Positions 5,815 through 28,504 of a stretch of 53,366 nucleotides of DNA are shown here, in pieces. This DNA comes from Pseudomonadota bacterium (lineage in GTDB: Bacteria > Desulfobacterota > Desulfobacteria > Desulfobacterales > RPRI01). The notes beneath the pieces were generated by a model. It searched no databases. It saw only the letters and a list, made by a program, of their open reading frames with translations, and was not told the DNA's origin. The DNA is taken from contig JBDRRF010000095.1 of NCBI GenBank assembly GCA_043825875.1, forward strand, positions 1 through 53,366, given 5' to 3'. How positions within the stretch are numbered: position 1 is the first letter of the stretch; each line of letters opens with the position of its first letter. Position numbers and translations under genes: made by a program.

Positions 5815-5993
5815 GTTCCGACCCGGGACAGCCCTTTGACCCCCTGCGGTATCCCCACCCGGACATCACCCTGGATATAGCCGACCGGCCGGTGGGCGGT
5901 CTTGGAATTCTGCTGGCCAAAGAGATGGGCAGCGACATGGCCTATTGCCGCAGCAATGACCGGAATGTCCTGGATATCTATTCCCATATATAG
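5815..5993 (+). pseudogene. C-terminal half of an RsbW-like anti-sigma factor kinase (HATPase_c)
   Basis: DPGQPFDP...RPVGGLGILLAKEMGSDMAYCRSNDRNVL matches G1/G2 boxes and C-terminus; N-terminal half with the N-box is absent. Confidence 0.75.
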
Positions 5994-6107
5994 AATATAG
6001 AATGGGGAACATTCTATAGCGCGAGAACCTACAACAAGACAGACCAAAGGGCAACTGCGCTTCTTGTTCTTTTAACAAAAATTGAACGCCAATATGGTTG
6101 GAAAAAC

Positions 6108-9100
6108 ATGAAAAACATCACCAAGCATTTATGGCTGGTCATCACTCTTATTCTGGCAACATCCTTAATTCTTTTAATGTCGGACCGGCCCCAGCGGTTT
6201 ACGCATGGGAACCCAGGCGCACAGGCCTACCCTTCCATCGCTGTGATGCAAATCGCTTCAACCGGGTTGTTGGATGCCTTTGTGACCGGCATGATCAGCC
6301 GGTTGGAAGAGAAGGGATACCGTGCGCCGGACGGAAAAAATATCCGTCTGTATAACCCCCAGGGAGATTACGGCACCGCAAATGCCATGGCCCGGGATAT
6401 CGTCAACACGCCCTATGACATGGTCATTACGGCCAGCACGATGGCCCTGCAGGTGGTTTCCAAAGCCAACCTGTCGACCCAAAAGACCCATGTGTTCGGT
6501 GCAGTCACCGATCCTTACGGCACGGGGGTGGGCATTACCGGGCCGGAACCCGACCAGCATCCGCCTTATATGGCCGGTGTGGGCACCTTTCAACCGGTGA
6601 AAAGCGCCATCCGCCTGGCCCATGACATGAATCCCGGGCTCAAGCGTTTGGGCGTTGTCTGGAATTCCGGAGAACAATGCTCGGAAGCCTGTCTCAAGGA
6701 AGCCAGGGCGATCTGTCAAGAACTTGGGATTGAACTCGTTGAAGCCATTGCGGTCAACACATCCGAGGTTTCCGACGCCGCACGGTCGCTCATCGCAAAA
6801 AATGTGGATGCGATCTGGGTCGGGGGCGATACCGTGGCCACGGCATCCATTGGTCTCATTGTGAGTCTGGCAAAACAGGCGGACATTCCCGTTTTTACCA
6901 ATGACCCCACAGATGCGGAAAAGGGTGCTCTTTTTGGACTGGGCGCGAATTATCATACGGTGGGACGATACACGGCCGATATGGCCGTGGCCATTCTGGA
7001 CGGACAACCGCCGTCTGCGTTTCGTATCGACAATATGATTCCGGAGCAACTGGGTTTGAACCAAGATGTGCTCGCAGGACTCAAGGGCCAATGGAAGATG
7101 TGTGCATCGGTTGAGGCCTTGCTGGACCAGCAGCAAATCGAACCGGTCAAAAAGCCGTTGGCGCCGGAACCGGGCAGAACCTACCGGGTGGGCCTGAGTT
7201 ATATTGTGCCAGCCCCAATCTTTGATATCGCCATACGCGGGTTTAAAGAAGGATTGGCGGATCTGGGATTTATTGAAAATGAGAATCTGGAACTCATAAC
7301 CCAGCATGCCAATGGGGACATGTCTTTTCTGCCCCAGGCTACAGCAAACCTGCTACAACAGCACCCGGATATTCTGGTGATCATGTCCACGCCCAGCCTG
7401 AGCAGCGCCATTGCTAACTCAGACGGCCTGAACATTGCGTTCGGAATTGTCTCCGCCCCTTTGCAGGCGGGTGCGGGTAAACGCTTTGACGACCATCTGC
7501 CGTATGTGACCGGTATCGTCCAGCTCATTCCCACGGAAGAGCTCTTTGACTGGACCCGAAAACTTTTTCCCCAGGCCAAACGGATCGGAGCACTGTACAA
7601 TCCTTCCGAAGCCAATTCCATCAAAGAGATCCAGGACCTGCAAAAGATCCTGGATCTGCAGGGCATCGAACTGGTTAAAACGGCGGTTTACAGCACCAGC
7701 GAAGTACCGGAAAGCATCCGAGCGCTATTGGCTAAAAATGTGGATCTGGTCTTTTCCATGGGAGACAACACTGTGGCCAACGGCATGCCGACAATGGTCA
7801 AGGCCTGCGAACAGCAAGGGGTTCCCATTATTGCCGAGGATATTGCCCTCATGGGAACAGGTGCCGTCATTTCCTGCGCGCCCGGCCCATACAGTGACGG
7901 ACGTGACCTTGCAAAACTGACAGCCCGCATCCTTTTAGGAGAATCGCCTGCGGATATTCCCATTGTTCCCGGCAAAAAGAATGAGCTGACCATTGATGCT
8001 TTGGCCCTGAAAAATGCCGGCATCACCGCGCCGGTAGAACTTTTGAAACGAGCGGATGTTTTTTTCAATCTCCGGTCGAAAAGCCAGGGCCCGGCCAAAA
8101 TCGTCTTGGTCAACCTGGTTGAAAATGCCTCACTGCTTCAGGCCATTAGTGGTGTGGAAACGGCATTGTCCGAAATGGGATTGAAACAAGGCACGGACTT
8201 TATCATGAAAAAATTCTGTGCCCAGGGGGATATGTCCCAGCTCTCCCAGATTCTGGCCCAGGTTGCCGCGGAAAAACCCGACGTCCTGATTACCGTTTCC
8301 ACACCCGTATTGATGGCTGCTGTGAAAAAGGACTTCGACTTTCCTTTGGTTTTTACCGTGGCCAGCGATCCGGGAAAATTGGGAATCTTTAAAGCGGGGC
8401 GTCCGAAAAATGTGTGCGGGATTCATGATGACCCACCCGTAGATCAGGTGCTTGAAATGGCGAAAAAATTTGATCCCGCCCTAACGGCGGTGGGGATCAT
8501 CTATGATGCCTCCCAAATGAACGCACTCATATCCGTGGAAAAACTCCGCAAGGCGGGGGGCGATCAGCATGTGAAAATCCTGGAAGCCACGGCCACCACT
8601 GTCTCTGATCTTCCCATGGCTGCCCAGGCATTGATCCAGCGCGGGGCCCAGGCCGTCATTCTCTCTGCCGACAACCTGGTGGTGACCGGTTTTTCCACCA
8701 TTCACAAGGTCACCAAGAGTGCCGGCATTCCCATTTATGTGACCGACGTGGATCTCATGGAAATGGGGGCTGATGGCGCCATCGGGGACAGTTATTTTGA
8801 CTGGGGACGGCAATCCGGTCGACTGGTGGCAAAAGTCCTGGCCGGGGTACCCCCTGACCAACTGCCTGTCATGCCCACGCAGGTCCATCATCGAATCGAA
8901 CCCAAACGCAAAGCGCTTTTTCTACCGGCCGAACCCTTTAAACTGCGTATGGTCCTTTACAGCGAAACGGAATTTGCCGAACGGTGCCAAGACGGACTTT
9001 TGGATGGCCTTCAGAAGGCCGGATTACAGGAAGACAGGGATTATACCCTGCGAATTTTCAATGCCCAGGGCGATATGTCCACCCTGTCGAGTATCATGAC

Positions 9101-9836
9101 GTCGGTTAAATCCGACCGGGTGGATCTGCTCATGGTGATTTCCACCCCAACGCTTCAGGCGGCTTTACGCCAGGCCGGTGAACATACAAAGATCGTTTTT
9201 ACCGGCGTGGGCGACGGGGTGAAGGCAGGTGCCGGCAAAAGCGAAAAAAACCATCTGCCGAACGTCACCGGCATTAGCACCCGTTCACCCTTTGGGGGCA
9301 TGGCGCAAATTATTAAAGAAACCCTACCCAATGCCCGGCGCGTGGGTACCCTTTTTACCCCGGGCGAAATCAACAGTGTCCTTTACAAGGACTGGTTCAA
9401 AGAGGCCCTTGCAGAGCAAGGCCTGGAGCTCATTGCCGTACCGGTCGGTTCCAGCGCCGATGTGGCCCAAGCCGCCATTGAACTATGCCAAAAGGATATT
9501 CATGCGGTGGCGCAGATAGTGGATAATCTGACCCGCCCGGGATTCGCACTGATTGCCCGCAAGGCTTCGGAGAAGAATTTGCCGGTCTATGTTTTCGACA
9601 GTGATCAGATGAAACACGGTGGCGTCATTTGCCTGGCCAGGGATTATTATGACGCCGGGTTGGAAGCGGCCGTAAAGGCTGTGCGGATCTTGCGGGGCGA
9701 AAATCCAAAAATGATCCCTTTTAATAATACCAGATCCGAAAAACTGATTCTGAATCCCGAACTGGCACAACAGTATAACCTCCGGATTTCAGACGAATTG
9801 AAGCAACGCGCCACCCTTTACGCACCTGAAAAGTAA
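6108..9836 (+). CDS. ABC transporter substrate-binding protein with four tandem ABC_sub_bind (TrpX-like, type I periplasmic) domains
   Basis: N-terminal membrane anchor; four ~300-aa repeats carrying NPQGD / HANGD / CAQGD / NAQGD and the corresponding G(V/A/I/T)xY/W/F and 'A.(I/V)L.G..P..(I/L/F)' motifs. Confidence 0.9.
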   Translation: MKNITKHLWLVITLILATSLILLMSDRPQRFTHGNPGAQAYPSIAVMQIASTGLLDAFVTGMISRLEEKGYRAPDGKNIRLYNPQGDYGTANAMARDIVNTPYDMVITASTMALQVVSKANLSTQKTHVFGAVTDPYGTGVGITGPEPDQHPPYMAGVGTFQPVKSAIRLAHDMNPGLKRLGVVWNSGEQCSEACLKEARAICQELGIELVEAIAVNTSEVSDAARSLIAKNVDAIWVGGDTVATASIGLIVSLAKQADIPVFTNDPTDAEKGALFGLGANYHTVGRYTADMAVAILDGQPPSAFRIDNMIPEQLGLNQDVLAGLKGQWKMCASVEALLDQQQIEPVKKPLAPEPGRTYRVGLSYIVPAPIFDIAIRGFKEGLADLGFIENENLELITQHANGDMSFLPQATANLLQQHPDILVIMSTPSLSSAIANSDGLNIAFGIVSAPLQAGAGKRFDDHLPYVTGIVQLIPTEELFDWTRKLFPQAKRIGALYNPSEANSIKEIQDLQKILDLQGIELVKTAVYSTSEVPESIRALLAKNVDLVFSMGDNTVANGMPTMVKACEQQGVPIIAEDIALMGTGAVISCAPGPYSDGRDLAKLTARILLGESPADIPIVPGKKNELTIDALALKNAGITAPVELLKRADVFFNLRSKSQGPAKIVLVNLVENASLLQAISGVETALSEMGLKQGTDFIMKKFCAQGDMSQLSQILAQVAAEKPDVLITVSTPVLMAAVKKDFDFPLVFTVASDPGKLGIFKAGRPKNVCGIHDDPPVDQVLEMAKKFDPALTAVGIIYDASQMNALISVEKLRKAGGDQHVKILEATATTVSDLPMAAQALIQRGAQAVILSADNLVVTGFSTIHKVTKSAGIPIYVTDVDLMEMGADGAIGDSYFDWGRQSGRLVAKVLAGVPPDQLPVMPTQVHHRIEPKRKALFLPAEPFKLRMVLYSETEFAERCQDGLLDGLQKAGLQEDRDYTLRIFNAQGDMSTLSSIMTSVKSDRVDLLMVISTPTLQAALRQAGEHTKIVFTGVGDGVKAGAGKSEKNHLPNVTGISTRSPFGGMAQIIKETLPNARRVGTLFTPGEINSVLYKDWFKEALAEQGLELIAVPVGSSADVAQAAIELCQKDIHAVAQIVDNLTRPGFALIARKASEKNLPVYVFDSDQMKHGGVICLARDYYDAGLEAAVKAVRILRGENPKMIPFNNTRSEKLILNPELAQQYNLRISDELKQRATLYAPEK

Positions 9837-9848
9837 ATAGGATATGTC

Positions 9849-11063
9849 ATGCAGATTGAATTTGAACAACGGGGAAAATACATGCTCCTGCGGGCCAAGG
9901 GTCGACTGGATGCAGTCTGGGCCGAATATTTTGCCGACACCCTTTTACAGCAGGTCCGGGAAGGTCGGCATCACCTGATCATGGATGCTGCGGAGATGAT
10001 TTTTCTCAGTTCCGCCGGGATCCGTTCACTACTAAAGGTCTATAAAGAGCTGCGCACGGTCAACGGCCGCTTTATCATTGTGAATGCCACCGACTTTGTG
10101 AATAAAACCTTGAGCACATCCGGACTTCAGATGCTGCTGGCCGAGGCGCTCCCAAAAGATATGCCGGCCGCCGGATCAACCGATGATGTGGATGAGGGCA
10201 AAGGTTCCGGTATTCAACATTTTATTTTAAATGAGAACTCCACATTAACATTTTCAGAACCAGCCGGCTGGCGTCCCTGGCAGGTGGTCGAAAAAAGCAG
10301 GGTCCAGGCGCTCCCCTTTTCCCAGGACATCTATGCTTTGGGCATCGCAAGTGCTGCCGACACCTTTGATCATGCCCGGAATCAATTTGGGGAATTTCTT
10401 GCGGTGGCCGGCCATGTGGTCTATCAGCCGCCCAATGAACAGGGCCCGCCGGATTATCTGATCGCTGAAAAGCAATTTATTCCCCAAATGCAGTGTATTC
10501 AGGTGTTGCGTTGCAACGGGGGTATGGGGCGCCTGATCCGTTTTGCAGCCACGGATAAAACACCTTTTTTTCCTGTTTCAACTTTATTGAGAAACCTGCT
10601 GGATCAAACGGGCGGAAAAGCCGCGGGCTTTGTCATGCTGGGCGAAATTGAAGGATTGGTGGGAACCGCCCTGATCCGCTCCCCCGGACAGATCCGCGAA
10701 GAACAGGAGATTGTCTTCCCTGAGATCCGGGAGTGGCTCACCTACTGCGGTGAGCGAGCTTATGCCCATCAGCAGGCTCTGTTGATGGGGGTGGTCTCCC
10801 CTACAAGCTCCCCCCTGCTTTTGCCCATGCCGTCGGTACCGGATATGGCCACCCATATTCATGGGGCGGTTTTTCCCTACCAACCCTTGCAGAACGGAAA
10901 GATCGAACTCCAAGGGGCCATTGAGAAGTTTTTTAACGGACCGCCGCCTTTGGCCGTCATGCATCTGGCCGATGATATCCGTCCCGTCATTGGATTGGGA
11001 GAGACAGCCCTGCTTCGGGGCGCCTGCTGGTTCAGCCCCCTGCAAAATCCGGAGGTGTTATAA
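9849..11063 (+). CDS. STAS (anti-anti-sigma) domain fused to a ~290-aa unknown C-terminal domain
   Basis: KGRLDA...MIFLSSAGIRSLL STAS motif with the phospho-acceptor Ser; acidic linker, then unrecognised domain. Confidence 0.8.
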   Translation: MQIEFEQRGKYMLLRAKGRLDAVWAEYFADTLLQQVREGRHHLIMDAAEMIFLSSAGIRSLLKVYKELRTVNGRFIIVNATDFVNKTLSTSGLQMLLAEALPKDMPAAGSTDDVDEGKGSGIQHFILNENSTLTFSEPAGWRPWQVVEKSRVQALPFSQDIYALGIASAADTFDHARNQFGEFLAVAGHVVYQPPNEQGPPDYLIAEKQFIPQMQCIQVLRCNGGMGRLIRFAATDKTPFFPVSTLLRNLLDQTGGKAAGFVMLGEIEGLVGTALIRSPGQIREEQEIVFPEIREWLTYCGERAYAHQQALLMGVVSPTSSPLLLPMPSVPDMATHIHGAVFPYQPLQNGKIELQGAIEKFFNGPPPLAVMHLADDIRPVIGLGETALLRGACWFSPLQNPEVL

Positions 11064-12010
11064 TGAGTCTGGTCATTGGTGCGTTTACCATGGGTCTGAT
11101 TCTTTCGCTGTTGTCTCTGGGCATGCTTATCAGTTTTCGGATGATCCGGTTTACCGATATCACCGTTGACGGCTCCATCACCCTGGGCGCCGCCATATCC
11201 GCCCTGCTGATTTCCCAGGGATATTCTCCCTGGCTGGCGGCACTGACATCCATCATAGCAGGCGCCCTGGCAGGCTCCATCACCGGCATTCTTTACACCC
11301 GGTTTAAAATCCAGGAGATTCTGTCCGGGATTCTGATGATGACGGCGCTCTATTCAATTAATTTGCGGGTCATGGGACGAAGCAATATTCCGTTGTTGGA
11401 CGTTAAAAGCGTATCATCCGGCACGGAAGGAATTTTGTCCGGCATTACGGCCGGCGCGTCACGGATAGAGATCCTGGGATGGCAGGTGCCCACGGGTGAT
11501 TTGGCGGTGTTTATCACCAGCGGCATCATCGTTATCCTGATCGGCCTGCTCCTGCGCTATTTTCTACTCACCCACTACGGCACAGCCTTGAGAGCAGCGG
11601 GGAACAATCCCCAGATGGTGCGGGCCCAAGGTGTCAACAACAACACCATGGTGGTTTTCGGCCTGGCCCTGTCCAACGGACTGGTGGCCTTATCCGGTTC
11701 GCTTCTGGCACAGTATCAGGGATTTGCAGACGTTCAAATGGGGATCGGCATGATGGTCTGGGGACTGGCCAGCATTATCATCGGCGATGCGCTGGTGGGC
11801 CGGGTCGGCATTGGTCTGACCATTGTGGGTGTCATTTTGGGGACCATCCTGTTCCGGCTCCTCATTGCCATTGCCCTGCGGTGGGGGCTGAATCCCAATG
11901 ATCTCAAATTGGTCACTGCTTTCTTTGTTTTTGCCGCACTGGTGGCTCCCGGCGGATTGCGTGCTTTAAGCCACAAGATCAGAGGAGGGCTTGGCCATGC
12001 TGCACATTGA
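11063..12010 (+). CDS. ABC transporter permease (BPD_transp_2 type, partner of TrpX-like binding proteins)
   Basis: DITVDGSITLGAA, ILSGILMMTALYSINLRVMGRSN, QYQGFADVQMGIG. Confidence 0.92.
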   Translation: MSLVIGAFTMGLILSLLSLGMLISFRMIRFTDITVDGSITLGAAISALLISQGYSPWLAALTSIIAGALAGSITGILYTRFKIQEILSGILMMTALYSINLRVMGRSNIPLLDVKSVSSGTEGILSGITAGASRIEILGWQVPTGDLAVFITSGIIVILIGLLLRYFLLTHYGTALRAAGNNPQMVRAQGVNNNTMVVFGLALSNGLVALSGSLLAQYQGFADVQMGIGMMVWGLASIIIGDALVGRVGIGLTIVGVILGTILFRLLIAIALRWGLNPNDLKLVTAFFVFAALVAPGGLRALSHKIRGGLGHAAH

Positions 12011-12809
12011 ATCCATCTCTAAAACCTTCCATGCCCACACGGCCAATGAAGTCCGGGCCCTTACGGGGGTCTCTCTCGCCCTGGAAAAGGGAAGCTTTAC
12101 CGGCATCATCGGCACCAATGGTTCAGGAAAAAGCACGCTGTTGAATGCGGTGGCCGGCACATTCGCACCGGATGCGGGCAGCATTCATCTGGCTGGGCAC
12201 GACATCACCTGCTGGCCGGAATACAAACGTGCCGCCCTGATCGGGCGCGTCTTCCAGGATCCCTTTGCAGGCACTGCGCCGGACATGACCATTGTGGAAA
12301 ATATCGTCATTGCCACCCGACGGGGGGAACGCAGGTCCTTGCGTTTGGCCGTGACCCGGGCGTTTCGCGACAGTGTGGCCGACCGGGTCCGGACCCTGAA
12401 AATGGGACTTGAAGACCGGTTAGACAACCCCATGGGGACCCTCTCCGGCGGCCAACGCCAGGCCTTGACCCTGCTCATGGCCGCCTGGACACGACCGAAC
12501 CTGCTTCTTTTGGATGAACATACCGCGGCGCTGGATCCCAAAAGCGCTGCCAAGATTGCGGAACTGACGAAAATCATCATTGAACAGGAAAAACTCACCG
12601 CCCTCATGGTCACCCACTCCATGCAACAGGCCGTGGAACTCCCGGACCGCATTATCATGATGCACCGGGGAAACATTGTAGAAGACTATCAACATGAACG
12701 CAAACAGCGGGTCCGCGTCCCCGACCTGATGGCCACCTTTGACCGGGTTCAGAAACGGGAACTCTTTGACGAATCCGTTGCCGGGGTGCTGAAAGGACAG
12801 TATCGCTGA
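11997..12809 (+). CDS. ABC transporter ATP-binding protein
   Basis: GTNGSGKST, LSGGQRQ, LLLDEHTAALDP; ATG 11997 after GAGGAGG. Confidence 0.93.
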   Translation: MLHIESISKTFHAHTANEVRALTGVSLALEKGSFTGIIGTNGSGKSTLLNAVAGTFAPDAGSIHLAGHDITCWPEYKRAALIGRVFQDPFAGTAPDMTIVENIVIATRRGERRSLRLAVTRAFRDSVADRVRTLKMGLEDRLDNPMGTLSGGQRQALTLLMAAWTRPNLLLLDEHTAALDPKSAAKIAELTKIIIEQEKLTALMVTHSMQQAVELPDRIIMMHRGNIVEDYQHERKQRVRVPDLMATFDRVQKRELFDESVAGVLKGQYR

Positions 12810-12866: not shown

Positions 12867-13652
12867 ATGACAAAAAAAATCACCCATGTCTTCTTGATAT
12901 TAGGCGTCGCAACGCTATTCATAACCGCGGTTGGATGCAGTGAAAGAAGCAAAATAACAAACCTTTCCCAGTTAAAAGGAAAGGAATTTGCCGTTCCTAC
13001 CGGCACGATTGCCGATGCATTGGTATTATCAAAAATACCGGATGCCAAATTCAAATACTTCAACAGTGTTCTTGATGCATGCCTGGCCGTAAAGGGCGGC
13101 AAGGCCGACGCCGCTGCTTACGATGAGCCCATATTAAAAAATATTGCCGCTAAAAATTCCGGCTTGAGGGTTCTTCCCCAGATGATTACGACAGATAACT
13201 ACGGCTTTGCCGTGCGGATGGAAGACAAAGCGCTCAAAAATGCAATTGACAATGTTCTCTCGCAATTAAAATCAAGCGGCGGATATGATTCAATGCTCAA
13301 ACGCTGGCTGCCGGAGCATGGCGCGCCTAAAGCGATGCCGGTTATCGAAACGGGAACGGATGGCGTGCTTAAATTCGGCACCTCGGCAATTACCGAACCG
13401 TTTTCGTTTGTCGATGGATCACAACAAATTGTGGGAATAGATATTGAAATCGCCTCACTGGTTGCCAAAAAAATGAACAAGAAGCTCAAAATCATAAATA
13501 TGGATTTTGGTGCGATGATTCCGGCTCTGGTAGCGCAAAAAGTGGATATGATCGGCGCATGTATCACCATAACGGAAGAACGCTCAAAGAAGGTACTCTT
13601 TTCAGAACCGTATTATACGGGTGGCATTGCTGCACTCGTTAAAGCGCAATAG
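12867..13652 (+). CDS. Polar amino-acid ABC substrate-binding lipoprotein (SBP_bac_3), circularly permuted
   Basis: Lipobox AVGC; LKGKEFAVPTGT lobe precedes the PFSF...GIDIEIA...ITITEER...FSEPYY lobe. Confidence 0.88.
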   Translation: MTKKITHVFLILGVATLFITAVGCSERSKITNLSQLKGKEFAVPTGTIADALVLSKIPDAKFKYFNSVLDACLAVKGGKADAAAYDEPILKNIAAKNSGLRVLPQMITTDNYGFAVRMEDKALKNAIDNVLSQLKSSGGYDSMLKRWLPEHGAPKAMPVIETGTDGVLKFGTSAITEPFSFVDGSQQIVGIDIEIASLVAKKMNKKLKIINMDFGAMIPALVAQKVDMIGACITITEERSKKVLFSEPYYTGGIAALVKAQ

Positions 13653-13658
13653 GTTTGT

Positions 13659-14543
13659 ATGAACTCTCTTTTTCGACATTCAGTGCTGTTTCTGGTTTTC
13701 TTTTTTTGTTTCACAACTATCGCTTTTGCGCTGCCACGGGAACAAGCCGATATCATAAAACCCTTATCATTAACAATAGGTAAGCTCAACGCCTTTGGCG
13801 TTGATTTTACGGCAGGTATCACTGCGCTGATTTCGAGCAAAGCAAGATCAATTACAGACGGTATAGCTGAAAGCTTTTACAGTAACATCCTCCAGGAGAG
13901 ACGTTATTTATTAATCCTCGATGGCCTGAAGGCCACCATGGTTATATCGGTGTTGGCAACCCTTTTAGGGACGCTGCTGGGCGGAATAATATGCTTTATG
14001 CGAATGTCGGGTAAAAAACTACTACAGGTGCCGGCAAAAATATACATCTCGATCTTAAGGGGTACGCCGGTACTGGTGGTTTTAATGCTCATATTTTACG
14101 TCGTCTTTGCTTCGGTGGATATTGACCCTTTGTTTGTTGCTGTCATTGCATTTGGATTGAACTTTGCTGCTTATGTTTCCGAAATGTTTCGAACCGGTAT
14201 CGAAGGCATCGACAGCGGGCAGACCGAGGCGGGTATCGCCCTGGGCTTTACAAGGGTAAAAACGTTTATATACATCGTCATGCCCCAGGCAGTACGCAGG
14301 ATACTGCCGGTTTACAAAGGAGAGATGATCTCCCTGGTGAAGATGACTTCCATTGTCGGTTATATCGCCGTGCAGGATTTAACCAAAGCCAGCGATATCA
14401 TCCGAAGCCGTACCTTTGATGCTTTTTTCCCGTTAATTATGGTGGCCGTCCTGTACTACCTGATCTGCTGGCTACTGATGTTCTCGTTGGAATATGTGGA
14501 ACAGATAATCAATCCAAAACGTAAAACAACCCAGGCATCCTGA
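13659..14543 (+). CDS. Polar amino-acid ABC permease (HisM/GlnP type) with N-terminal extension
   Basis: [34 protein letters not shown] (EAA loop), [17 protein letters not shown]. Confidence 0.92.
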
Positions 14544-14545
14544 AG

Positions 14546-15634: not shown

Positions 15635-15699
15635 ACAATTCGCACAGAACACGGGACCCAGCATGGAATCAATATGCCATTTAATAATTTTGAGAAACA

Positions 15700-15987
15700 C
15701 CCAAACCGTCATGCCGGACTTGATAAGCCTGCCCCGGCAAGCTTGAAGCCGGGGGTATCCAGAACCCAATGGAATTACTGGTTAGCGCTGAAGCTTCACT
15801 GCGTGCCCGGCCTTCGAGACTGTGTCGCAATTCATTTTTGTGTCATTTCAAATCGAAGCGAGAAATCTTGGTTTTAATAAATTCAGAACGTTAAGATTCA
15901 TCACATAAGTTCGGAATGACATTTTTTCTAATTACGACACAGTCTGTTCGCCGGAATGACAAATGTGGAGTTTTCCAGCTTTTTACA
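15700..15987. repeat. GTCATGCCGG...CCGGAATGAC REP/MITE-type palindromic element carrying nested insertions
   Basis: CGTCATGCCGGACTTGAT...CCGGAATGACAAA..GGAGTTTT.CAGCTTTT; the right end recurs at 29532-29567. Confidence 0.65.
15816..15946. mobile_element. MITE nested in the REP element
   Basis: TIRs AGACTGTGTCGCAATT (15817-15832) / AATTACGACACAGTCT (15930-15945), 1 mismatch; TTC duplicated on both flanks. Confidence 0.7.
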
Positions 15988-16046
15988 TGTCTATGTAATC
16001 CAAATGCGGTTACCCTGCGTCAAAATTGTATTTTTATTTCTTTTCA

Positions 16047-16069
16047 AGTATGATATAAGTTATCATACT
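16047..16069. promoter_or_regulatory. Putative operator palindrome upstream of the 16.1-28.5 kb operon
   Basis: AGTATGATA-taagt-TATCATACT, perfect 9-bp inverted repeat. Confidence 0.45.
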
Positions 16070-16144
16070 GAGTAGATCAATAATAGACATCAGGGAATGT
16101 TGTTCCTTTTCATTTGTTGTAATTGGGGAGCTATCAGGCAGCAT

Positions 16145-21133: not shown

Positions 21134-22509
21134 AAATCGAATTCGAGTTAAACGGCAAAGCAATCTGCCTGGATGTACCCGGTGCTTTGAGAGTGGTGGA
21201 CCTTTTGCGGGAGGATATGGGCCTGACAGGAACCAAGGAAGGCTGCGGGACCGGTGAATGCGGGGCATGTACTATTCTGGTGGACGGGCGCAGTCGGTTG
21301 TCCTGTCTGATGCTTGCGGCCCAACTGGCAGGCCGCAGGGTAATCACTATAGAGGGTTTGGCACAGCAAGAACATCTGCATCCGGTTCAGGCATCCTTTG
21401 TTGAAAAAGGGGCTGTGCAATGCGGATTCTGTACGCCCGGCATGGTTCTGACAACGGTGGATCTTCTGTCGCGCCATCCCCACCCCGGGCGCAAGGAAAT
21501 TGCCCGGGCCATCAGCGGAAATCTATGCCGCTGTACCGGCTATAAAAAGATTATTGATGCAGTTGAAAGCGTTGAACAAAAACCTCTAAACAACTGGCAT
21601 ACCTCCAAAATGCCGGAAGATATTCTTTCAGATGTTTCAGTTGGTTTAAAAGGAAGAAATAAACGCCAAATATTTCTTCCGCAATCTTTAGACGAACTGT
21701 GGCAAATTTTTGCCGAATATCCGGGAGCGAAAGTTTTTGGAGGCGGAACCGATCTTTTTGTATGGATGCGAAGCCGGCGTATTGACCCGGAGACCATAAT
21801 CGGTCTTGAACGCATTGATGAGCTTTGCGGCGTTTATGAAACCGCAGACGGATTCCGCATAGGCGCAGCCACTACTCATGAGATCATGCTGGAAAACCCT
21901 GTTATCAAAAGTATGTTTCCGGTTTTGACTCAGGCATTAAAAACACTGGGTTCCCCCCATATACGTCATGTTGCAACTATTGGCGGCAATATAATGACCG
22001 CCTCTCCAGCCGGAGACACATTGCCGCCTTTGTATGTGCTGGGCGCAAAAGTTGAGTTGCTGTCGGCTCAAGGCCTGCGCTGTCTGCCTCTGGATGCCTT
22101 TATCCGGGCGCCGGGACAAACTGTTTTGGAGACTGGTGAAATTCTTTCTGCCGTGATTATCTCCAGACCCCGTGAAATCACTTTCCAGTATTTTGAAAAA
22201 GTAGGGCTCAGAGATGCTATGGCTTGTGCCGTGGCAAGCCTGGCGGCAGTGATCGGGTTTTTGGAATCCGGCAGGATCGGATCAGCTCGTTTTGCCTGGG
22301 GAAGTGTGGGTCCAACTGTTATGCGGTTGCCTGAGATAGAATCAGTTCTGGTCGGGCAACCCCTGGACAAACAGCATATGAAAGCACTGATACCTCTGGT
22401 TCGGGAACGGCTTTTCCCCATTTCCGATATAAGAGCCGGAGCCGATTACCGCAGGCTGGTTGCAGGTAACCTGCTGCTGCGTCTGCCGGAAGTAGCCGCA
22501 TCATCATAA
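21130..22509 (+). CDS. Fused 2x[2Fe-2S] and FAD-binding subunits of a xanthine dehydrogenase-family enzyme
   Basis: GTKEGCGTGECGACT, QCGFCTPG, GNLCRCTGY, then GGGTDL, IRHVATIGGNI, ASPAGD, PISDIRAGADYR. Confidence 0.93.
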   Translation: MKIEFELNGKAICLDVPGALRVVDLLREDMGLTGTKEGCGTGECGACTILVDGRSRLSCLMLAAQLAGRRVITIEGLAQQEHLHPVQASFVEKGAVQCGFCTPGMVLTTVDLLSRHPHPGRKEIARAISGNLCRCTGYKKIIDAVESVEQKPLNNWHTSKMPEDILSDVSVGLKGRNKRQIFLPQSLDELWQIFAEYPGAKVFGGGTDLFVWMRSRRIDPETIIGLERIDELCGVYETADGFRIGAATTHEIMLENPVIKSMFPVLTQALKTLGSPHIRHVATIGGNIMTASPAGDTLPPLYVLGAKVELLSAQGLRCLPLDAFIRAPGQTVLETGEILSAVIISRPREITFQYFEKVGLRDAMACAVASLAAVIGFLESGRIGSARFAWGSVGPTVMRLPEIESVLVGQPLDKQHMKALIPLVRERLFPISDIRAGADYRRLVAGNLLLRLPEVAASS

Positions 22510-22543
22510 TCTAATATTGCCGATAGTTTGCGGAGGACGGAAG

Positions 22544-23788
22544 TTGACTAAACCGAAAACTTTACCCATGACAGCAAAAAGTCCGGATAACCCGGATATA
22601 TCCATTCATGAGCTGCTTTTGTCCCGAAAATTTATTTGTCTGATGACAGCAGCCTTTTTAGCCTATGCGAACATATCCGTTTTTTTCGGTTTCGTTGATC
22701 ATCTTCACACCTTGCCCGTTGATCCAGCGGATTATGGCTTACTTATAGGTGCTTTAGCCGCCGTATCCCTGATTGTCCGTCCGTTGATCAGTCCATTTTT
22801 CCATTCCGGAAACGCCCAAAAACTTCTTTTTATCGGCACCATCCTTGCGGCCTGCTCTTTAGCCGCTTATACTGTGGCCGTCGATTATTGGAGTATGCTT
22901 CTGGTGCGTATTTTTCACGGGATTGCCTTTGCCGTTTTGGGAACGGCCCTTATGACCCTGGTTGTGGATGTTATTCCTAAGGAAAAAAGCGCACAGTTTT
23001 TCGGATATCTGGCAGTGGCCACCCTTTTGCCGAATACCCTGATCCCCCCGCTTCTTCCTTTTCTGGATACCAGCCTGGGTGGATTTAACCGGATTTTGTT
23101 GTTGTTTGCCGCTTTGACGCTTCTAATGTTTCCTCTGGTATTTGCTGTGGCGGATAAGGAACAAAAAAAATCAACAAATAAAGATTCATCCGCACTATCC
23201 GTTAAAGAAGTCATGGAAAATCTGACGAATGTCCATGTGCTTCGAATTCTGGCAGCCATGCTGCTTTTATATTGCGGGCATGCCATGGTCTTTTTTTTCC
23301 TGGACGGATATGGCAAATCTATTCAAATTGCCTATGTCGGAATATTTTTGACTTTTTCCACAGTTGGAGAAATCGGAATTCGTGTTGCCGCCGGTTCTTT
23401 TTTCGACCGGATAAATAAGGGACGTCTGGCCTCCTGGAGTCTGCTGGGATTGTGTTTGGCCTATGTCTTGCTGGCCTATGTTCCGGATAAATGGATTTTC
23501 TTTTCTCTGGGTTTGATCTTTGGGTTGGGTTGGGGTGTAGCCATGCCGGTGTTCAACGGATTGATGTTTGATGTATCCAAACCGCGGTTCAGGGCTTTTA
23601 ATATAAATCTTGGCCTGCAGATGTTTCAGGCGGGCTTTTTTTTTGGTCCATTGATAGGCGCACCCTTGCTTGCCGGTTGGGGGTACAGGGAGCTATACCT
23701 TTTTTGCGCCGGAACAAGTCTTTTGGCAGCAGTTTTGATGTTTACGAAAGGAGCTGAAAATGACAGCCGAAACGATAACAACACCTGA
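22544..23788 (+). CDS. MFS transporter
   Basis: About 12 TM segments, LLVRIFHGIAF and GSFFDRINK motifs; probable TTG start at 22544 after GGAGG (ATG 22568 is an alternative). Confidence 0.88.
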   Translation: MTKPKTLPMTAKSPDNPDISIHELLLSRKFICLMTAAFLAYANISVFFGFVDHLHTLPVDPADYGLLIGALAAVSLIVRPLISPFFHSGNAQKLLFIGTILAACSLAAYTVAVDYWSMLLVRIFHGIAFAVLGTALMTLVVDVIPKEKSAQFFGYLAVATLLPNTLIPPLLPFLDTSLGGFNRILLLFAALTLLMFPLVFAVADKEQKKSTNKDSSALSVKEVMENLTNVHVLRILAAMLLLYCGHAMVFFFLDGYGKSIQIAYVGIFLTFSTVGEIGIRVAAGSFFDRINKGRLASWSLLGLCLAYVLLAYVPDKWIFFSLGLIFGLGWGVAMPVFNGLMFDVSKPRFRAFNINLGLQMFQAGFFFGPLIGAPLLAGWGYRELYLFCAGTSLLAAVLMFTKGAENDSRNDNNT

Positions 23789-24809
23789 TATTGAACCCGG
23801 ACAGTCCTACGAAATATGCCGTTTTCAACCCGGAGATGCCGAAGGGGTTGCCAGGCTCTTTTACTCGGTTTATGGCAGCGGATATCCGGTACGAACCTAC
23901 TTGGAAGCGGAGCTTTTAATCAAGGAAAACGAGGCCCAGCGGATCATTTCGAGTGTAGCCAGAACCCGGCGGGGAGACATTGTCGGCCACACTGCATTGT
24001 TTAACAGCGCACCGCATCCGGGAACCTATGAAGTTGGAGCCGGTTTGGTTCATACGGCCTATCGTGGCGGGAAAAAAATATTTACTCAGCTTGCGATCCA
24101 TAGTCGCGATCTTGCCGCCACACTGCCGGGGGTGGATGCCGCGTTTGGTGAACCGGTCTGCAATCATCCATTCAGCCAGAAGCTGATGGAAAACTTGGGG
24201 TTTCTTCCCAGTTCATTGGAGGTGGACCTTATGCCGGCTGAAGCCTATGTGAAAGAGGCCAGCGCAAGTGGTCGGGTAGCCGCATTTCTAAATTTCAAAA
24301 CCTACCAAAAAAACCCCCATACGGTCTATTTACCCCGTATTTACGCAAAAGAGTTGCCATTTTTCTACGAAGGTTTAGACGACGAGAGGGATTTTCTTAT
24401 AGCGGAAAATGAAACATGTACCGAAAATGATACCGATCTGAAACTTCAGATATTTGACTTTGCCGGCGTGGCCCGTGTCGCAATCCATGCTGTGGGCAGG
24501 GATTTTTTGGCACGGATAGAAGCACTGGAAAAGGAATTGCAGGAAAAAAATGTACTGGTGATTCAGATCTGGCTCAATTTTGCCGACACATGTATCGGCA
24601 AGGCTGTTGAAATATTGCGGATGCGCGGCTATTTTCTTGGTGGCATACTTTTGCGCTGGTTTGATACAGACGGACTATTAATGCAAAAAATACGCAAACA
24701 TCCCGACTGGGATGGAATTTACACTCATACGGATCGATACGGACAAATTCTAAAAATGGTCCGAAGCGACTGGGAACGCTCGATTAAGGAGAAACATGAT
24801 GGATATTGA
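23760..24809 (+). CDS. GNAT-like N-acyltransferase
   Basis: RFQPGDAEGVARLFYSVYG, GDIVGHTAL, EVGAGLVHTAYRGG (motif A-like), SQKLMENLGF. Confidence 0.75.
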   Translation: MTAETITTPDIEPGQSYEICRFQPGDAEGVARLFYSVYGSGYPVRTYLEAELLIKENEAQRIISSVARTRRGDIVGHTALFNSAPHPGTYEVGAGLVHTAYRGGKKIFTQLAIHSRDLAATLPGVDAAFGEPVCNHPFSQKLMENLGFLPSSLEVDLMPAEAYVKEASASGRVAAFLNFKTYQKNPHTVYLPRIYAKELPFFYEGLDDERDFLIAENETCTENDTDLKLQIFDFAGVARVAIHAVGRDFLARIEALEKELQEKNVLVIQIWLNFADTCIGKAVEILRMRGYFLGGILLRWFDTDGLLMQKIRKHPDWDGIYTHTDRYGQILKMVRSDWERSIKEKHDGY

Positions 24810-25131
24810 CTTTCAGATGAAAGGAAACGCCCTGGTTGCATCAGTGCATGGAAGGGTGGATACGGGTAACGCTTCTGTGTTTGAGAAGAAACTTGTCGAA
24901 GAGTTGAACCAGGAAGAGAAGTGGCTGGTGTTCGATCTTTCAGGGTTGGAATACATCAGCAGCGCAGGCTTGCGTGTTTTATTGAGCACGGCTAAAATTA
25001 TGAAGTCTAAAGGGGGAGACATCCGGTTGGCTGCAACCCAGGGACCAGTTAAAAAAGTATTCCAGATATCAGGGTTTTTTTCCCTCTTCAAGCATTTTGA
25101 TACCACGGATGCAGCGCTTGAAAATCTCTAA
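24796..25131 (+). CDS. Anti-sigma factor antagonist (STAS, RsbV/SpoIIAA-like)
   Basis: GRVDTGNA, DLSGLEYISSAGLRVLL, VKKVFQISGF. Confidence 0.93.
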   Translation: MMDIDFQMKGNALVASVHGRVDTGNASVFEKKLVEELNQEEKWLVFDLSGLEYISSAGLRVLLSTAKIMKSKGGDIRLAATQGPVKKVFQISGFFSLFKHFDTTDAALENL

Positions 25132-25567
25132 GACACAAGTAGTCCCGGTTTCCGTTTCATTACCGTCCCGGATCGAGAATCTGCCGCACTTTATTACTCC
25201 GGTGCTTGCCGCAGCGCGTGCCCTTTTCATTGATGAAGACAGATGCAATGATCTGGAGCTTGCGATAGAAGAAAGCATAGTCAACATAATAAGCTATGCC
25301 TATCCGGACAAGGAAGGTATAGTGCGAATCGACTGCCGGAGAGAAGAAGATTGCCTGGTTGTTTGCATTGAAGATGAAGGGATTGAATTCGACATAACTG
25401 CAGCCGATGCCCCTGATTTGTCTTCCGACGTTTCATCGCGCAAAATAGGCGGGTTGGGAATTTATCTTGTGCGGAATCTGATGGACGATGTCCGCTACCG
25501 GCGGGAGGGCAACAGGAACCTTTTGGAACTGGTGATCTTCTTGCACCCTAAGGAGATGAAAGAATGA
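25109..25567 (+). CDS. Anti-sigma factor / Ser kinase (RsbW-like HATPase_c)
   Basis: LELAIEESIVNIISYAY (N-box), EDEGIEFD, GGLGIYLVRNLMDDVRYRREGNRNLL; exact start uncertain (25097-25118). Confidence 0.92.
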   Translation: MQRLKISKTQVVPVSVSLPSRIENLPHFITPVLAAARALFIDEDRCNDLELAIEESIVNIISYAYPDKEGIVRIDCRREEDCLVVCIEDEGIEFDITAADAPDLSSDVSSRKIGGLGIYLVRNLMDDVRYRREGNRNLLELVIFLHPKEMKE

Positions 25568-26568
25568 TCCGGACACAACGAAACGTATTCTGGCTTACAA
25601 TTACCGTTTGGATGATTCTATGCGGTTCCTTATGGGCAACAACTGAATCACCGGGTTTGAAAAAGCTGACTTTTCTTCCCCAATGGCTGCCACAGGCGCA
25701 GTTTGCCGGATATTATGTGGCTCTTAACAAGGGTTATTATCGCCGTCACGGCATTGATCTGACCATCATTCCGGGTGGTCCCGACCATTCACCTGCGGCA
25801 TACATAAGAGAAAAAAAAGCGGATATTGTAACGCTCTGGCTTTCTTCGGCCCTTCAGCTGGCTGACCAGGGTGTGGAAGTGGTCAATGTGGGACAGATTA
25901 TTCAGCGCTCGGCATTGGTGCTTGCCGCCAAAAAGAGTTCGGGTATTAAAAGCCCGGCAGATATGGACGGAAAAAAAATCGCACTTTGGCCGTCCGATTT
26001 TCAAATCCAGCCCAGGGCGTTTTTCGATAAGTTTGACCTTAAGGTGCAGGTAGTGACAACCAATAGTCCGATCAATCTCTTTCTTCGCGACGGAGTCCAG
26101 GTTTCTTCGCTTATGTGGTACAATGAGTATCATGCACTGATCAATTCAGGACTTGACCCGGATGAGATAACGCTTTTTTTCTTTGATGACGTGAATCTTA
26201 ATTTCCCGGAAGACGGTATATATCTTCGTAAGGAGACTTTAGATAATGATCCTGAAGCTGCCTGTGCCTTTGTAAACGCATCGGTAGAGGGATGGCAATA
26301 CGCCTTCGCACATCCCGAAGAGGCGATAGATATTATGATTTCGATCATGGAAGCGGCCCATATTCCGGCAAACAGGGTGCATCAGCGATGGATGCTTGAT
26401 CGGATGCGTGATTTAACGGTATCCGGGCCGAAAGGTGAGCGAATGTGGGAGCTTAAATTTGATGATTACCGGAAAGTTGGTGATATTCTGGTTTCAAACG
26501 GGCTGATTCGGGCTGTACCACCTTATGAATTATTTTTCAGAAAGTGTTTTTGCCATGATAAAGAATAG
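25564..26568 (+). CDS. NMT1/THI5-like periplasmic substrate-binding protein
   Basis: QWLPQAQFAGYYVALNKGYY, GIKSPADMDGKKI, MWYNE, FVNASVEGWQYAFAHPEEA; signal peptide. Confidence 0.9.
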   Translation: MIRTQRNVFWLTITVWMILCGSLWATTESPGLKKLTFLPQWLPQAQFAGYYVALNKGYYRRHGIDLTIIPGGPDHSPAAYIREKKADIVTLWLSSALQLADQGVEVVNVGQIIQRSALVLAAKKSSGIKSPADMDGKKIALWPSDFQIQPRAFFDKFDLKVQVVTTNSPINLFLRDGVQVSSLMWYNEYHALINSGLDPDEITLFFFDDVNLNFPEDGIYLRKETLDNDPEAACAFVNASVEGWQYAFAHPEEAIDIMISIMEAAHIPANRVHQRWMLDRMRDLTVSGPKGERMWELKFDDYRKVGDILVSNGLIRAVPPYELFFRKCFCHDKE

Positions 26569-28504
26569 AGGCATTGCCTTCAGGCTGGGGGCGCCGATCC
26601 TGGCAGGAGCCGCCCTGATATTTATGGTTGTTTTTGCCTTCGGATACTTCTTTTCAAGGGAAGCGATTCTTAGGAATGTGGAGAATAATGCGCAAAATAT
26701 TGCCAAACAGACTGCCCACCGTATCGAATCCGTGCTTGCGCCAGTGCAAAAACTGCCGGTCAATCTCACTGCGGCAATCGAAACGCTTGATCTAAGCGAA
26801 ACGGAAATGATAGATGTTCTTGGTAAAACACTAAGCAAGAACCCCGAAATCTTCGGTGCTGCAATTGCCTTTGAACCCTATGCCTTCAAATCAGACAGAC
26901 TGTATTTCTGCCCTTATCTGTTCCGCAAGGGAAAAGGACTTCAGCATACATATCTTGACGGAAAACATTATCACTATTTCTATCAGGACTGGTATCAAAT
27001 TCCAAGGGAAACCCTTCAGGAATACTGGAGCGAGCCATATTTCGACGAAGGTGGAGGCGACATTCTCATGGAAACATTTTCGTGCCCTTTTTTCAAAAAA
27101 AAGGAAGGAAAACGTCTTTTTGCCGGTGTAATCACGGCCGATATCTCTCTGGAATGGCTTAAAAAGTTTGTTTCGGAAATACGGATTCTTAAAACCGGCT
27201 ATGGATTCATCCTCTCTCGAAACGGTGCTTTTGTTGCTCATCCGGAAAAGCGCTGGGTAATGAACGAGACAATTTTCAGTATAGCCGAGGCAAGGGGTGA
27301 TGCAAAACTTCGAAATATCGGAAGGCAAATGATTGCAGGGGAATCAGGCTTTGTTTCTTTTACCGGCTATGATTTAAAAAAAGCCGGTTTTCTCTACTTT
27401 GCTCCGGTTAAATTCAGCAAATGGTCTTTGGGTATTTTTTTCCCAAAAGACGAACTGATGGCCGACCTGGACGAAATTAATAAAAAAGGAATCTATCTGG
27501 CGGTTTGCGGATTGATAGTACTGTTTCTGGTGGTTTGGCTGGTTTCAAAAACCATCACTCGACCTTTGAGAACCCTTTCCGTTGTAGCCCGTGAAATGGC
27601 TACGGGCAATCTGGAAATAGTAGTGCCGAACCAAAAAAGCGGAGGAGAGGTGGGGCTTCTGGCCGAATCTTTTAATTTCATGAAAGATTCTCTTAAAATT
27701 CACATTCAGGATTTGCTGGAAGCCACTGCTGCCAAAAAGAGTTTCGAAAGCGAGCTCAATATAGCCCGCGATATTCAGATGGGATTTCTGCCCAAAAATT
27801 TTAATCCCTTTCCGGATATTCCGGAGTTTGATCTTTACGCATTTATCAAACCGGCAAAGGAAGTGGGTGGAGATCTTTATGACTTCTACAGAATTGATGA
27901 TGAGCGCATCTGCTTTGTTTTGGGAGATGTATCCGGCAAAGGTGTTCCGGCATCCCTGTTCATGGCAGTAACCATGACCCTTATTAAAATGACTGCTGCG
28001 AAGGGACTAAGCCCGGATCGCATTTTGCAGGAAGTCAATTCCCAACTAAGCCGGGACAATGAAGCCAACATGTTCGTGACACTGTTTTGCGGTATATTAA
28101 ATATCCGTACCGGAGAGCTATGGTATGCAAACGGCGGACATAATCCGCCGGTGTTGTTGCAAAAAAACGGAGAAGCTGTTTTTCTGGAAGGAACAGACGG
28201 GGTTTTGCTTGGCGCTATGGACGGTATTGAATACGAAATGAAAAAAATCCGGTTAGATGCCGGAGAGGGCTTGTTTATCTATTCGGACGGCATCACCGAG
28301 GCTATGGATGAAAAGGAAAATCTATACTCCGAAGAGCGCCTGCTTGAACTTTTTAAGAGTATGAAACCACTGCCGTCGTCCCAGGTGGTGGATGTGGTTA
28401 TTAGCAGTGTTCTATCCTTTGCAGGCCAGGCTCCGCAAACCGACGACATTACAGTGATGATGCTGCGATTTTGGGGCAATGAAAATAAATTAATGCAAGG
28501 CTGA
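26555..28504 (+). CDS. Membrane sensor PP2C phosphatase (dCache-HAMP-SpoIIE, RsbU-like)
   Basis: Two TMs flanking QDWYQIP/WSEPYFDEGGG Cache motifs; HAMP (ITRPL...EVGLLAESFNFM); PAKEVGGDLYD, GDVSGKGVPA, YSDGITEA, DDITV; start ATG 26555. Confidence 0.95.
   Translation: MIKNRGIAFRLGAPILAGAALIFMVVFAFGYFFSREAILRNVENNAQNIAKQTAHRIESVLAPVQKLPVNLTAAIETLDLSETEMIDVLGKTLSKNPEIFGAAIAFEPYAFKSDRLYFCPYLFRKGKGLQHTYLDGKHYHYFYQDWYQIPRETLQEYWSEPYFDEGGGDILMETFSCPFFKKKEGKRLFAGVITADISLEWLKKFVSEIRILKTGYGFILSRNGAFVAHPEKRWVMNETIFSIAEARGDAKLRNIGRQMIAGESGFVSFTGYDLKKAGFLYFAPVKFSKWSLGIFFPKDELMADLDEINKKGIYLAVCGLIVLFLVVWLVSKTITRPLRTLSVVAREMATGNLEIVVPNQKSGGEVGLLAESFNFMKDSLKIHIQDLLEATAAKKSFESELNIARDIQMGFLPKNFNPFPDIPEFDLYAFIKPAKEVGGDLYDFYRIDDERICFVLGDVSGKGVPASLFMAVTMTLIKMTAAKGLSPDRILQEVNSQLSRDNEANMFVTLFCGILNIRTGELWYANGGHNPPVLLQKNGEAVFLEGTDGVLLGAMDGIEYEMKKIRLDAGEGLFIYSDGITEAMDEKENLYSEERLLELFKSMKPLPSSQVVDVVISSVLSFAGQAPQTDDITVMMLRFWGNENKLMQG

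Follow-up and report, generated by a model that had tools for sequence, protein, structure and literature searches.

The window analysed here is the whole of contig JBDRRF010000095.1 (53,366 nucleotides (nt), forward strand) from a Pseudomonadota bacterium placed by GTDB in the Desulfobacterales, RPRI01 (GCA_043825875.1; genome of 4.77 Mb, 39% GC). Between 6108 and 28504 it carries plus-strand genes that the original prediction, made from the letters alone, had described as a single co-oriented 23-kb block with a partner-switching system. An open reading frame (ORF) map and family scans recovered every gene named there, all on the plus strand: the phosphatase/STAS/kinase triad, a second STAS domain in a fusion protein, three kinds of binding protein (TrpX-like with four domains, SBP_bac_3 and NMT1/THI5), and the HisC-like, Xdh-family and MFS genes. 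As one block, the region did not hold together; it consists of three modules, A, B and C (Table 1). Module C is a conserved, mobile operon and a new form of sigma-less partner switching, and its constant core is protein 16385 with a HisC-like transaminase. Two features had been missed: gene 23760 is a second GNAT, akin to 16385, and the C-terminal domain of 9849 has an identifiable fold. Genes are labelled by their start coordinates and residues numbered from the longest ORFs (16385, 24796, 25097 and 26525); the ATG starts given originally (16391, 25109 and 26555) are plausible alternatives.

Table 1 Features of the window and of related loci (aa, amino acids; pLDDT, model confidence)
Feature	Position	Strand	Evidence or remark
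Decayed MMPL/YCF48-like genes	3786-5150		Immediately upstream of the inserted ATP-binding cassette (ABC) block
rsbW-like kinase gene, 3' fragment (relic)	5817-5993	+	PF13581 positions 72-125
Module A	6108-12809	+	TrpX-type ABC importer and STAS/acetolactate-decarboxylase-fold fusion
TrpX-like binding protein, four domains (ABC_sub_bind x4)	6108-9836	+	PF04392 in 4 stretches; NF041285 above cut-off
STAS + acetolactate-decarboxylase/PTD012-fold fusion	9849-11063	+	Model pLDDT 92
ABC permease	11063-12010	+	PF02653
ABC ATPase	11991-12809	+	PF00005
Module B	12867-15634	+	ABC importer for polar amino acids; its ATPase carries a degenerate RsbW-like domain at the C terminus
SBP_bac_3 binding protein	12867-13652	+	Family scans
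Polar amino-acid permease	13659-14543	+	Family scans
GlnQ-like ATPase	14546-15634	+	C-terminal degenerate RsbW-like domain, aa 240-362
Palindromic REP-like repeat	~15680-15985		Many copies here and in sister genome G008
Module C	16385-28504	+	Conserved operon: adaptor, transaminase, molybdenum (Mo) enzyme, MFS, GNAT, triad, THI5-like protein
Putative adaptor 16385	16385-17707	+	Dead RsbW-fold aa 7-144, GNAT-fold aa 159-309, third alpha/beta domain; ATG probably 16391
HisC-like pyridoxal phosphate (PLP) transaminase, separate clade	17704-18837	+	TIGR01141, 303.6 against a cut-off of 276.55
Xdh-family Mo enzyme, large subunit	18827-21133	+	
Xdh-family Mo enzyme, fused FeS-FAD subunit	21130-22509	+	
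MFS transporter	22517-23788	+	PF07690; in 50/80 loci
Second GNAT protein	23760-24809	+	Architecture as the C-terminal part of 16385
STAS anti-anti-sigma-type protein	24796-25131	+	Phospho-acceptor S56; TIGR00377 above cut-off
RsbW-type Ser kinase	25097-25567	+	Intact N, G1 and G2 boxes; PF13581, 91.6 bits; ATG probably 25109
NMT1/THI5-like periplasmic binding protein, accessory	25564-26568	+	In 15/80 loci
dCache-HAMP-PP2C phosphatase	26525-28504	+	PF07228, 177.6 bits; ATG probably 26555
Antitoxin-toxin pair after the operon	28752-29311	-	Seen in translations; presumably YefM/YoeB-like
MOSC domain fused to FdhD	29604-30833		Common to the window and G008
True alpha-acetolactate decarboxylase genes upstream of module C	L054:569-1348; L057:9024-9884; L063:1774-2631; L064:9028-9912; L067:9028-10155	opposite to module C	5/80 loci; four of the five may come from related genomes

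An alignment-driven scan found 216 GTDB stretches related to 16385, and locus counts below refer to the best 80, of which 44 extend at least 9 kb upstream and 48 at least 9.5 kb downstream; many end early. Only module C recurs in them: the TrpX-like protein, the STAS fusion, the module A permease and the RsbW-tailed ATPase occur in none of the 80 loci. The sister genome G008 and locus L001 match module C at 97% up to window position 16370, beyond which they resume with a 78-79% match to window 5572-5053, with neither A nor B; the STAS fusion was not found in G008. Since A and B are missing beside C in all 80 homologous loci and in the sister genome, a wiring of the importers to the switch is not supported. 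Intergenic gaps are at most 57 nt, except for 756 nt between 15634 and 16391 that contain a multicopy genomic repeat. The GC content at third codon positions (GC3) is 0.59-0.69 in A, 0.48-0.52 in B and 0.46-0.54 in C, all above the genome mean of 0.35. We infer that modules A and B are separate acquisitions with partner-switch remnants of their own.

The survey of module C bore out the linkage of the triad to the HisC, Xdh, GNAT and MFS genes. The HisC-like gene is found in 79 of the 80 loci, followed by Xdh (59), MFS (50), the second GNAT (45), STAS (36), RsbU (33), RsbW (21) and the THI5-like protein (15). The transaminase directly follows 16385 in 79 of the 80, the exception being a locus that ends inside 16385, and at least one triad gene is present in 34 of the 48 loci with at least 9.5 kb downstream. 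Around this pair the gene order is shuffled, with the triad upstream, downstream or inverted; Xdh, MFS and the second GNAT are each dispensable, and one locus (L051) has only the pair, the THI5-like protein and the triad. Across the phylum, 16385 is present in 47 of 401 genomes (about one in nine), and the transaminase clade in 44, all of which also have 16385 (43 of them adjacent); the three of the 47 genomes without the clade are partial matches. Only 1 of 16 same-genus genomes carries 16385. Record titles of the loci include Desulfobacterales, Syntrophales, Syntrophomonas and an Acidobacteriota metagenome-assembled genome; among the hosts of the core genes, Desulfofustis glycolicus DSM 9705 (L013) is in culture. 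In addition, a plasmid of Ca. Thiodictyon syntrophicum (NZ_CP020371.1, L102:13890-26803) carries the whole module C set. Most of its genes are annotated as hypothetical, and its Xdh large subunit is fragmented next to IS607 transposase genes. A metagenome scan with a single protein returned one near-identical locus only, and a weak GNAT match on a Salmonella plasmid was dropped, its gene context being unrelated.

The N-terminal domain of 16385 (whole model, pLDDT 91) has the GHKL/RsbW fold, in agreement with the RsbW-like domain originally assigned to this protein: Foldseek matched it to 6m37 (E 3.5e-7), VIA to 1l0o (Z 15.4, root-mean-square deviation (rmsd) 3.4, 135 aligned) and HHalign to the local RsbW family (98.3%). 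A PDB sequence search with the 16385 profile gave only matches with E>0.3. The N-box Asn is replaced by Y/H/F at position 56 in 81/81 sequences and the conserved G1 D-x-G is absent; the Glu-Glu pair is kept (E51 in 80/81, E52 in 81/81), and G112-L113...R118 is invariant. The Glu-Glu region forms the STAS-binding face in SpoIIAB-SpoIIAA structures. The following domain has a GNAT fold (VIA 3ld2, Z 14.6, rmsd 2.6, 143 aligned, model range 160-307). In GNAT proteins the pyrophosphate of acetyl-coenzyme A (acetyl-CoA) is bound by an R/Q-x-x-G-x-G loop; in 16385 the corresponding loop, 241-247, is unconserved across the 81 sequences. Because of the lost N-box and G1 and the unconserved pyrophosphate loop, 16385 has no recognisable catalytic site; it is a likely adaptor. 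With the acetyl-CoA motif missing and a complex with the transaminase predicted (see below), the likely target of the switch is the transaminase rather than an acyltransferase activity of 16385. Atlas structure matches place 16385 and 23760 with a family whose members are ~490 aa long and combine HATPase_c_2 with GNAT domains, and the profiles of 16385 aa 155-440 and 23760 are colinear over 260 columns in a weak match (11%, E 0.003). By profile comparison, the second domain of 16385 and the third showed no homology to each other as repeats.

Within the operon, conservation is highest in the transaminase (mean identity 69%, versus 38-56% for the others). Its PLP-site residues Y26, K236, R244, R341 and R353 are invariant in 64 sequences, and it has an invariant basic/hydrophobic surface helix at 326-335. 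It was rejected as the housekeeping hisC, a better-scoring copy of which (373 bits, 34% identical) lies on contig C54. We modelled 16385 aa 158-438 together with the transaminase (aa 12-370, in two copies), alongside 3 controls. The pair scored 0.71 and the best control 0.00; the runs agreed in at least 92% of contacts, with a partner pLDDT of at least 82. Of 157 solved complexes 116 attained this mark, and of 215 mismatched pairs 2 did so, frequencies that apply only roughly to the present job. 16385 is thus predicted to bind the transaminase. On the transaminase the predicted interface comprises residues 24-39 and 323-350 (small domain and N-terminal lid), including Y330, R331, R341, R347 and P349, which are conserved in 76/76; R331, R341, R347 and Y330 pair with the invariant E283, R304, E308, D309 and R335 of 16385. 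The housekeeping HisC agrees at only 8 of 25 interface positions. In 16385, polar residues at the interface show higher conservation than polar residues elsewhere in the protein (p 0.011); the remaining three comparisons of conservation gave no significant difference. No HisC-GNAT complex appeared among the PDB titles listed for these searches, which are not exhaustive. A GNAT-fold protein reportedly also acts as a binding regulator of an amino-acid-metabolising enzyme in PanZ(PanM)-PanD, where PanZ is said to sense acetyl-CoA and the target is a pyruvoyl decarboxylase; unlike PanZ, 16385 has an RsbW-fold domain and no CoA motif.

The triad genes retain the motifs of their families. The STAS protein keeps S55-S56 in 37/37 sequences, the kinase keeps E59, N63, D93, G118, G119 and G121 in 23/23, and the phosphatase has four metal-binding Asp motifs at 448, 466, 586 and 640. 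The genome contains one full RsbW and one full SpoIIE, both within the window.

The phosphatase has its best PDB matches in the sensor domains 3LIB, 3LI8 and 3LIC, with 3LIB best for the full protein. The Methanosarcina mazei domain 3LIB binds methylamines and defines the dCache_1AM motif, Ser/Thr phosphatases are among the carriers of this motif, and single mismatches abolished binding (10.1101/2023.04.06.535858). Like 3LIB, the phosphatase has all seven pocket positions (Y131, W156, Y157, Y172, M182, T184 and D206), the upper Arg-Asp pair being not clearly kept (10.1101/2023.04.06.535858). Six positions were aligned to 3LIB and the first aromatic was placed by its spacing to the McpX/PctD numbers; the set is complete in 29 of 31 Cache sequences, with the window and the near-identical L001 included. 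The purine motif needs an aromatic residue and Asp (10.1101/2023.10.26.564149), at whose positions this Cache family has Met and Thr/Ser. From these residues, the Cache phosphatase likely senses an amine. The accessory THI5-like protein has binding proteins (4nmy and 3ix1) as its best structural matches. It was rejected as a THI5 hydroxymethylpyrimidine phosphate synthase, having Leu and Ser, compared with 4h6d, at what we take to be the positions of the PLP-binding Lys and the substrate His.

As for the pathway enzymes, the Mo large subunit retains the catalytic E726 in 46/46 sequences, with D248 and L325 also in 46/46, and its best PDB match is nicotinate dehydrogenase. A standard xanthine dehydrogenase was rejected, as the protein falls below all named cut-offs and has Asp/Leu in place of Glu/Arg, D248 and L325 being presumably equivalent to the xanthine-binding pair. 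The best NCBIfam matches of the MFS protein are exporters, all below cut-off. The family of the second GNAT, 23760, keeps acyl-CoA motif A (R102 in 47/47, G106 in 41/47), with K106 in the present copy. In five loci an adenosine-deaminase-family gene takes the place of Xdh (above the TIGR01430 cut-off for L093), and some loci also hold MATE, GDSL hydrolase and AMP-binding genes. Given the amine sensor, the simplest and likely reading of these sequences is a route from amine to aldehyde to acid.

No sigma factor lies in the window, as had been stated; the five sigma70 region-2 matches of the genome (a 617-aa RpoD-sized protein, RpoH, FliA in a flagellar locus and two ECF-like proteins) are on other contigs. 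Homologous clusters gave the same answer: no sigma factor matched in the 80 loci (1.25 Mb), in a search that is weak for ECF factors, and none was among the 91 recurring gene clusters of the loci. No sigma70 promoter was found in 15600-16420, the sigma54 motif showed no excess (1/74, versus 0.5 in shuffles), and no common upstream 8-mer was found. The original concept of a sigma-less switch with degenerate RsbW-fold domains on non-sigma proteins is supported.

We propose that in module C an outside amine would bind the dCache pocket, whose motif is present, with the THI5-like protein as an optional helper. The PP2C phosphatase 26525 and the kinase 25097, whose motifs are intact, would set the state of S56 on the STAS protein, as expected from their families. 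Unphosphorylated STAS may then dock on the dead RsbW domain at the N terminus of 16385, where the Glu-Glu pair is retained and ATP would not be bound, and the GNAT-fold part of 16385, predicted to hold the small domain and N-terminal lid of the transaminase, would change its activity. The transaminase would convert a primary amine to an aldehyde, which the Mo enzyme would oxidise to the acid; GNAT 23760 (by acylation), the MFS protein and, in some genomes, the adenosine-deaminase-family enzyme may assist. Control through such a chain, from amine and phosphatase to STAS, dead RsbW and transaminase, is likely post-translational. We give the full mechanism, from Cache phosphatase through STAS and 16385 to the transaminase with no sigma factor, an even chance of being correct. 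Somewhat short of that stands the broader notion that dead RsbW domains are a portable STAS-receptor module, found also on ABC ATPases, and that the double pseudo-enzyme 16385 is a regulatory subunit of the transaminase.

Several observations weigh against this mechanism. Within the fetched span, 14 of the 48 long loci have no triad gene; of five tested genomes without a nearby triad, two had no close Cache homolog (three, in favour of the switch, have one elsewhere), so that 16385 and the transaminase may function as a pair on their own. In eight loci (L017, L019, L027, L032, L044, L048, L056 and L066), some of them ending early, STAS and the Cache phosphatase are present with no RsbW match in the fetched span; there a kinase may act in trans. 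In the sensor, no conserved Arg stands where that of the Arg-Asp pair over the pocket would be expected (E117 is kept in 25/31, R100 in 17/31 and R/K134 in 27/31), and in the study that defined the motif single mismatches abolished binding (10.1101/2023.04.06.535858). Taken as a whole, the predicted interface shows no significant excess of conservation (p 0.17 and 0.19), and 16385 and the transaminase gave no covariation signal. The exchange of Xdh for a deaminase hints at a better fit to amino-heterocycles than to simple amines. Finally, sigma-less clusters can control an unlinked sigma factor, as Synechocystis Slr1861/Ssr1600 does with SigC (PMC12329169).

Modules A and B bear on whether the switch reaches further. 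In the STAS fusion of module A, the C-terminal domain gave no Pfam match in the family scan; its structure matches 1xcr (Foldseek, E 2.5e-6) and 6inb (VIA, Z 17.2, rmsd 2.9, 198 aligned), at 8-13% identity. H336, H338 and H372 are invariant (91/91) and, in the model, likely form a Zn site; the STAS domain carries S54-S55, phosphorylatable. The permease and ATPase genes of module A also flank the fusion in loci L085-L091, module A without C alongside is found in 7 of 400 phylum genomes, and at L087 it stands beside its own RsbU-RsbW-STAS genes. Separately, the fusion, with 278 homologs, lies within TrpX-type ABC importer operons in all 7 other genomes examined, and a plasmid search with the C-terminal domain gave no match. 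The RsbW-like domain that had been placed at 5815 is indeed RsbW sequence, yet a gene fragment and not a domain: it spans only the last 56 of 148 profile positions (88-143; E 1e-21, local profile), no N-terminal half was found in any plus-strand frame, and it was rejected as a working domain. The relic probably came in with module A; it may be what is left of a triad that probably regulates the STAS fusion of that module.

In module B, the RsbW-like domain proposed on the ABC ATPase 14546 was confirmed at the profile level: the tail matches the local RsbW family at 98.0% over 105 columns (HHalign), against 0.4% for a STAS control, while PF13581 is found in 2 of 76 homologs. Its degeneracy is like that of the 16385 N-domain: E282-E283 is kept in 75/75, the N-box Asn is replaced (L/I/V/M at 287 in 75/75) and Asp at 316 is not conserved. 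The tail is present in 3 of 400 phylum genomes, and at L095 it is near its own Cache-SpoIIE gene. Elsewhere, GlnQ-type ATPases with a dead RsbW tail (L094-L096) are on Geobacter, Ignavibacteria, Bacteroidota and Aminicenantes records, and the tail of 14546 is matched by 82 representatives at 50% clustering. Two loci (L080 and L083) have polar amino-acid ABC genes near module C, without an RsbW tail. Module B resembles E. coli MlaFB, in which a STAS protein sits on an ABC ATPase; MlaB binds the nucleotide-binding domain itself (PMC7367683), whereas in module B the dead RsbW is fused to the ATPase and the window has no STAS gene belonging to the module.

The unified circuit first imagined for the 23 kb would have either STAS domain docking on every RsbW-like domain, so as to switch the importers and the acyltransferase. 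In its favour, all RsbW-family matches of the genome (local profile) fall within the window, the ATPase tail keeps Glu-Glu in 75/75, and STAS control of an ABC ATPase has the MlaFB precedent (PMC7367683). Moreover, 16385 is found on a different contig in 5 of 7 genomes with the STAS fusion and in 2 of 3 with the ATPase fusion (versus 46/400 overall), these being few and some of them kin, and two A/B metagenome protein pairs on equally long contigs (25058 and 42185) speak against full independence of the modules. We nevertheless regard this circuit as improbable, with neither A nor the B ATPase tail near any of the 80 loci, both missing from the sister genome, differing GC3 tiers, and A with its own triad (L087) and B with its own phosphatase (L095) elsewhere. 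A more serious competitor, though still an unlikely one, lets the triad act in trans on an unlinked sigma factor or anti-sigma (e.g. FliA/FlgM), with 16385-HisC constitutive and the RsbW fold serving dimerisation or scaffolding. The intact RsbW 25097, the FliA gene of the genome, the triad-less long loci, the Synechocystis case (PMC12329169) and Pseudomonas PA3347, which binds FlgM (PMC8256260), all accord with it. None of the five region-2 matches is of the SigB/F type, however, a scaffold would not need the invariant Glu-Glu and G112-L113...R118, the triad accompanies the operon even onto a gammaproteobacterial plasmid, and eight loci retain STAS and phosphatase without a detected RsbW.

Some GNAT folds use acyl carrier protein or tRNA donors. 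16385 and the HisC-like enzyme could accordingly be a channelled biosynthetic pair with a non-CoA donor, whose product, an amine or amino-heterocycle, the MFS protein exports and the Cache phosphatase senses in an autoinduction loop. The contact predicted next to the transaminase lid, the exporter-like (below cut-off) MFS matches and the MATE, GDSL hydrolase and AMP-binding genes of some loci suit this scheme; no conserved catalytic motif was recognised in 16385, the Mo hydroxylase and deaminase look degradative and no precursor-supply genes recur, so that we consider it rather doubtful, below the unlinked-sigma account. The last alternative concerns the substrate only and is compatible with the proposed switch: module C may salvage or detoxify purines or other amino-heterocycles, the amine motif then recognising an aminomethyl-heterocycle. 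Evidence of this kind comes from the deaminase gene in the five Xdh-less loci, the resemblance of the THI5-like protein to ThiY and the nicotinate dehydrogenase match, and is opposed by the Mo subunit, below all xanthine dehydrogenase cut-offs and with Asp/Leu at the positions we take for Glu/Arg, and by a Cache domain with amine rather than purine residues. We judge such a substrate to have a small chance, comparable to that of the unlinked sigma factor, and retain the amine-responsive switch on the transaminase as the preferred reading.

Canonical partner switches control sigma factors, while the outputs of SypA, BtrV, RbaV and HmpV are non-sigma or unidentified (PMC8256260; PMC12826045). 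By analogy, the closest precedent for module C is Anabaena HenR/Alr3423/All4160, for which direct enzyme control by partner switching has been shown (PMC13555669). There, as proposed for module C, a SpoIIE phosphatase and an RsbW-type kinase act via STAS on a metabolic enzyme with no sigma factor, and the STAS-enzyme fusion 9849 of module A has the same layout as the All4160 STAS-glycosyltransferase (PMC13555669). Unlike the Anabaena fusion, the STAS of module C is free and its proposed receiver is a dead RsbW on a separate pseudo-GNAT predicted to bind a PLP enzyme, and a Cache domain takes the place of the receiver domain as input (PMC13555669). With Bacillus RsbU-RsbV-RsbW-sigmaB and SpoIIE-SpoIIAA-SpoIIAB-sigmaF, module C shares the triad motifs and the fold of the 16385 N-domain (PMC8256260; 6M37, 1L0O), but its locus lacks a cognate sigma and contains embedded metabolic genes and additional RsbW domains that are ATP-less. 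It is also like Chlamydia RsbU/V1/W, Vibrio SypE/SypA, Bordetella BtrUVW and Pseudomonas SiaABC, which are Gram-negative and have metabolite-sensing phosphatases or non-sigma outputs; the available part of the source describes no dead RsbW-GNAT adaptor or transaminase target for them (PMC8256260). The resemblance to SiaA is a below-cut-off match only (NF038263). No description of the module C architecture was found in the literature searched, with most subscription papers outside its reach.

If correct, the proposal would mean that sigma-less partner switches have a general kind of output that is so far undescribed and that about one in nine genomes of the phylum possess. Targets of SypA, HmpV and RbaV are still unidentified (PMC8256260), and the operon offers a concrete candidate output, testable with four small soluble proteins (STAS, kinase, dead-RsbW adaptor and transaminase). 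Partner switches that control enzymes directly would then be known beyond the cyanobacterial STAS-glycosyltransferase fusions, a widespread hypothetical family would gain a function, and sulfate reducers and syntrophs would be expected to have an amine pathway that has gone unrecognised.

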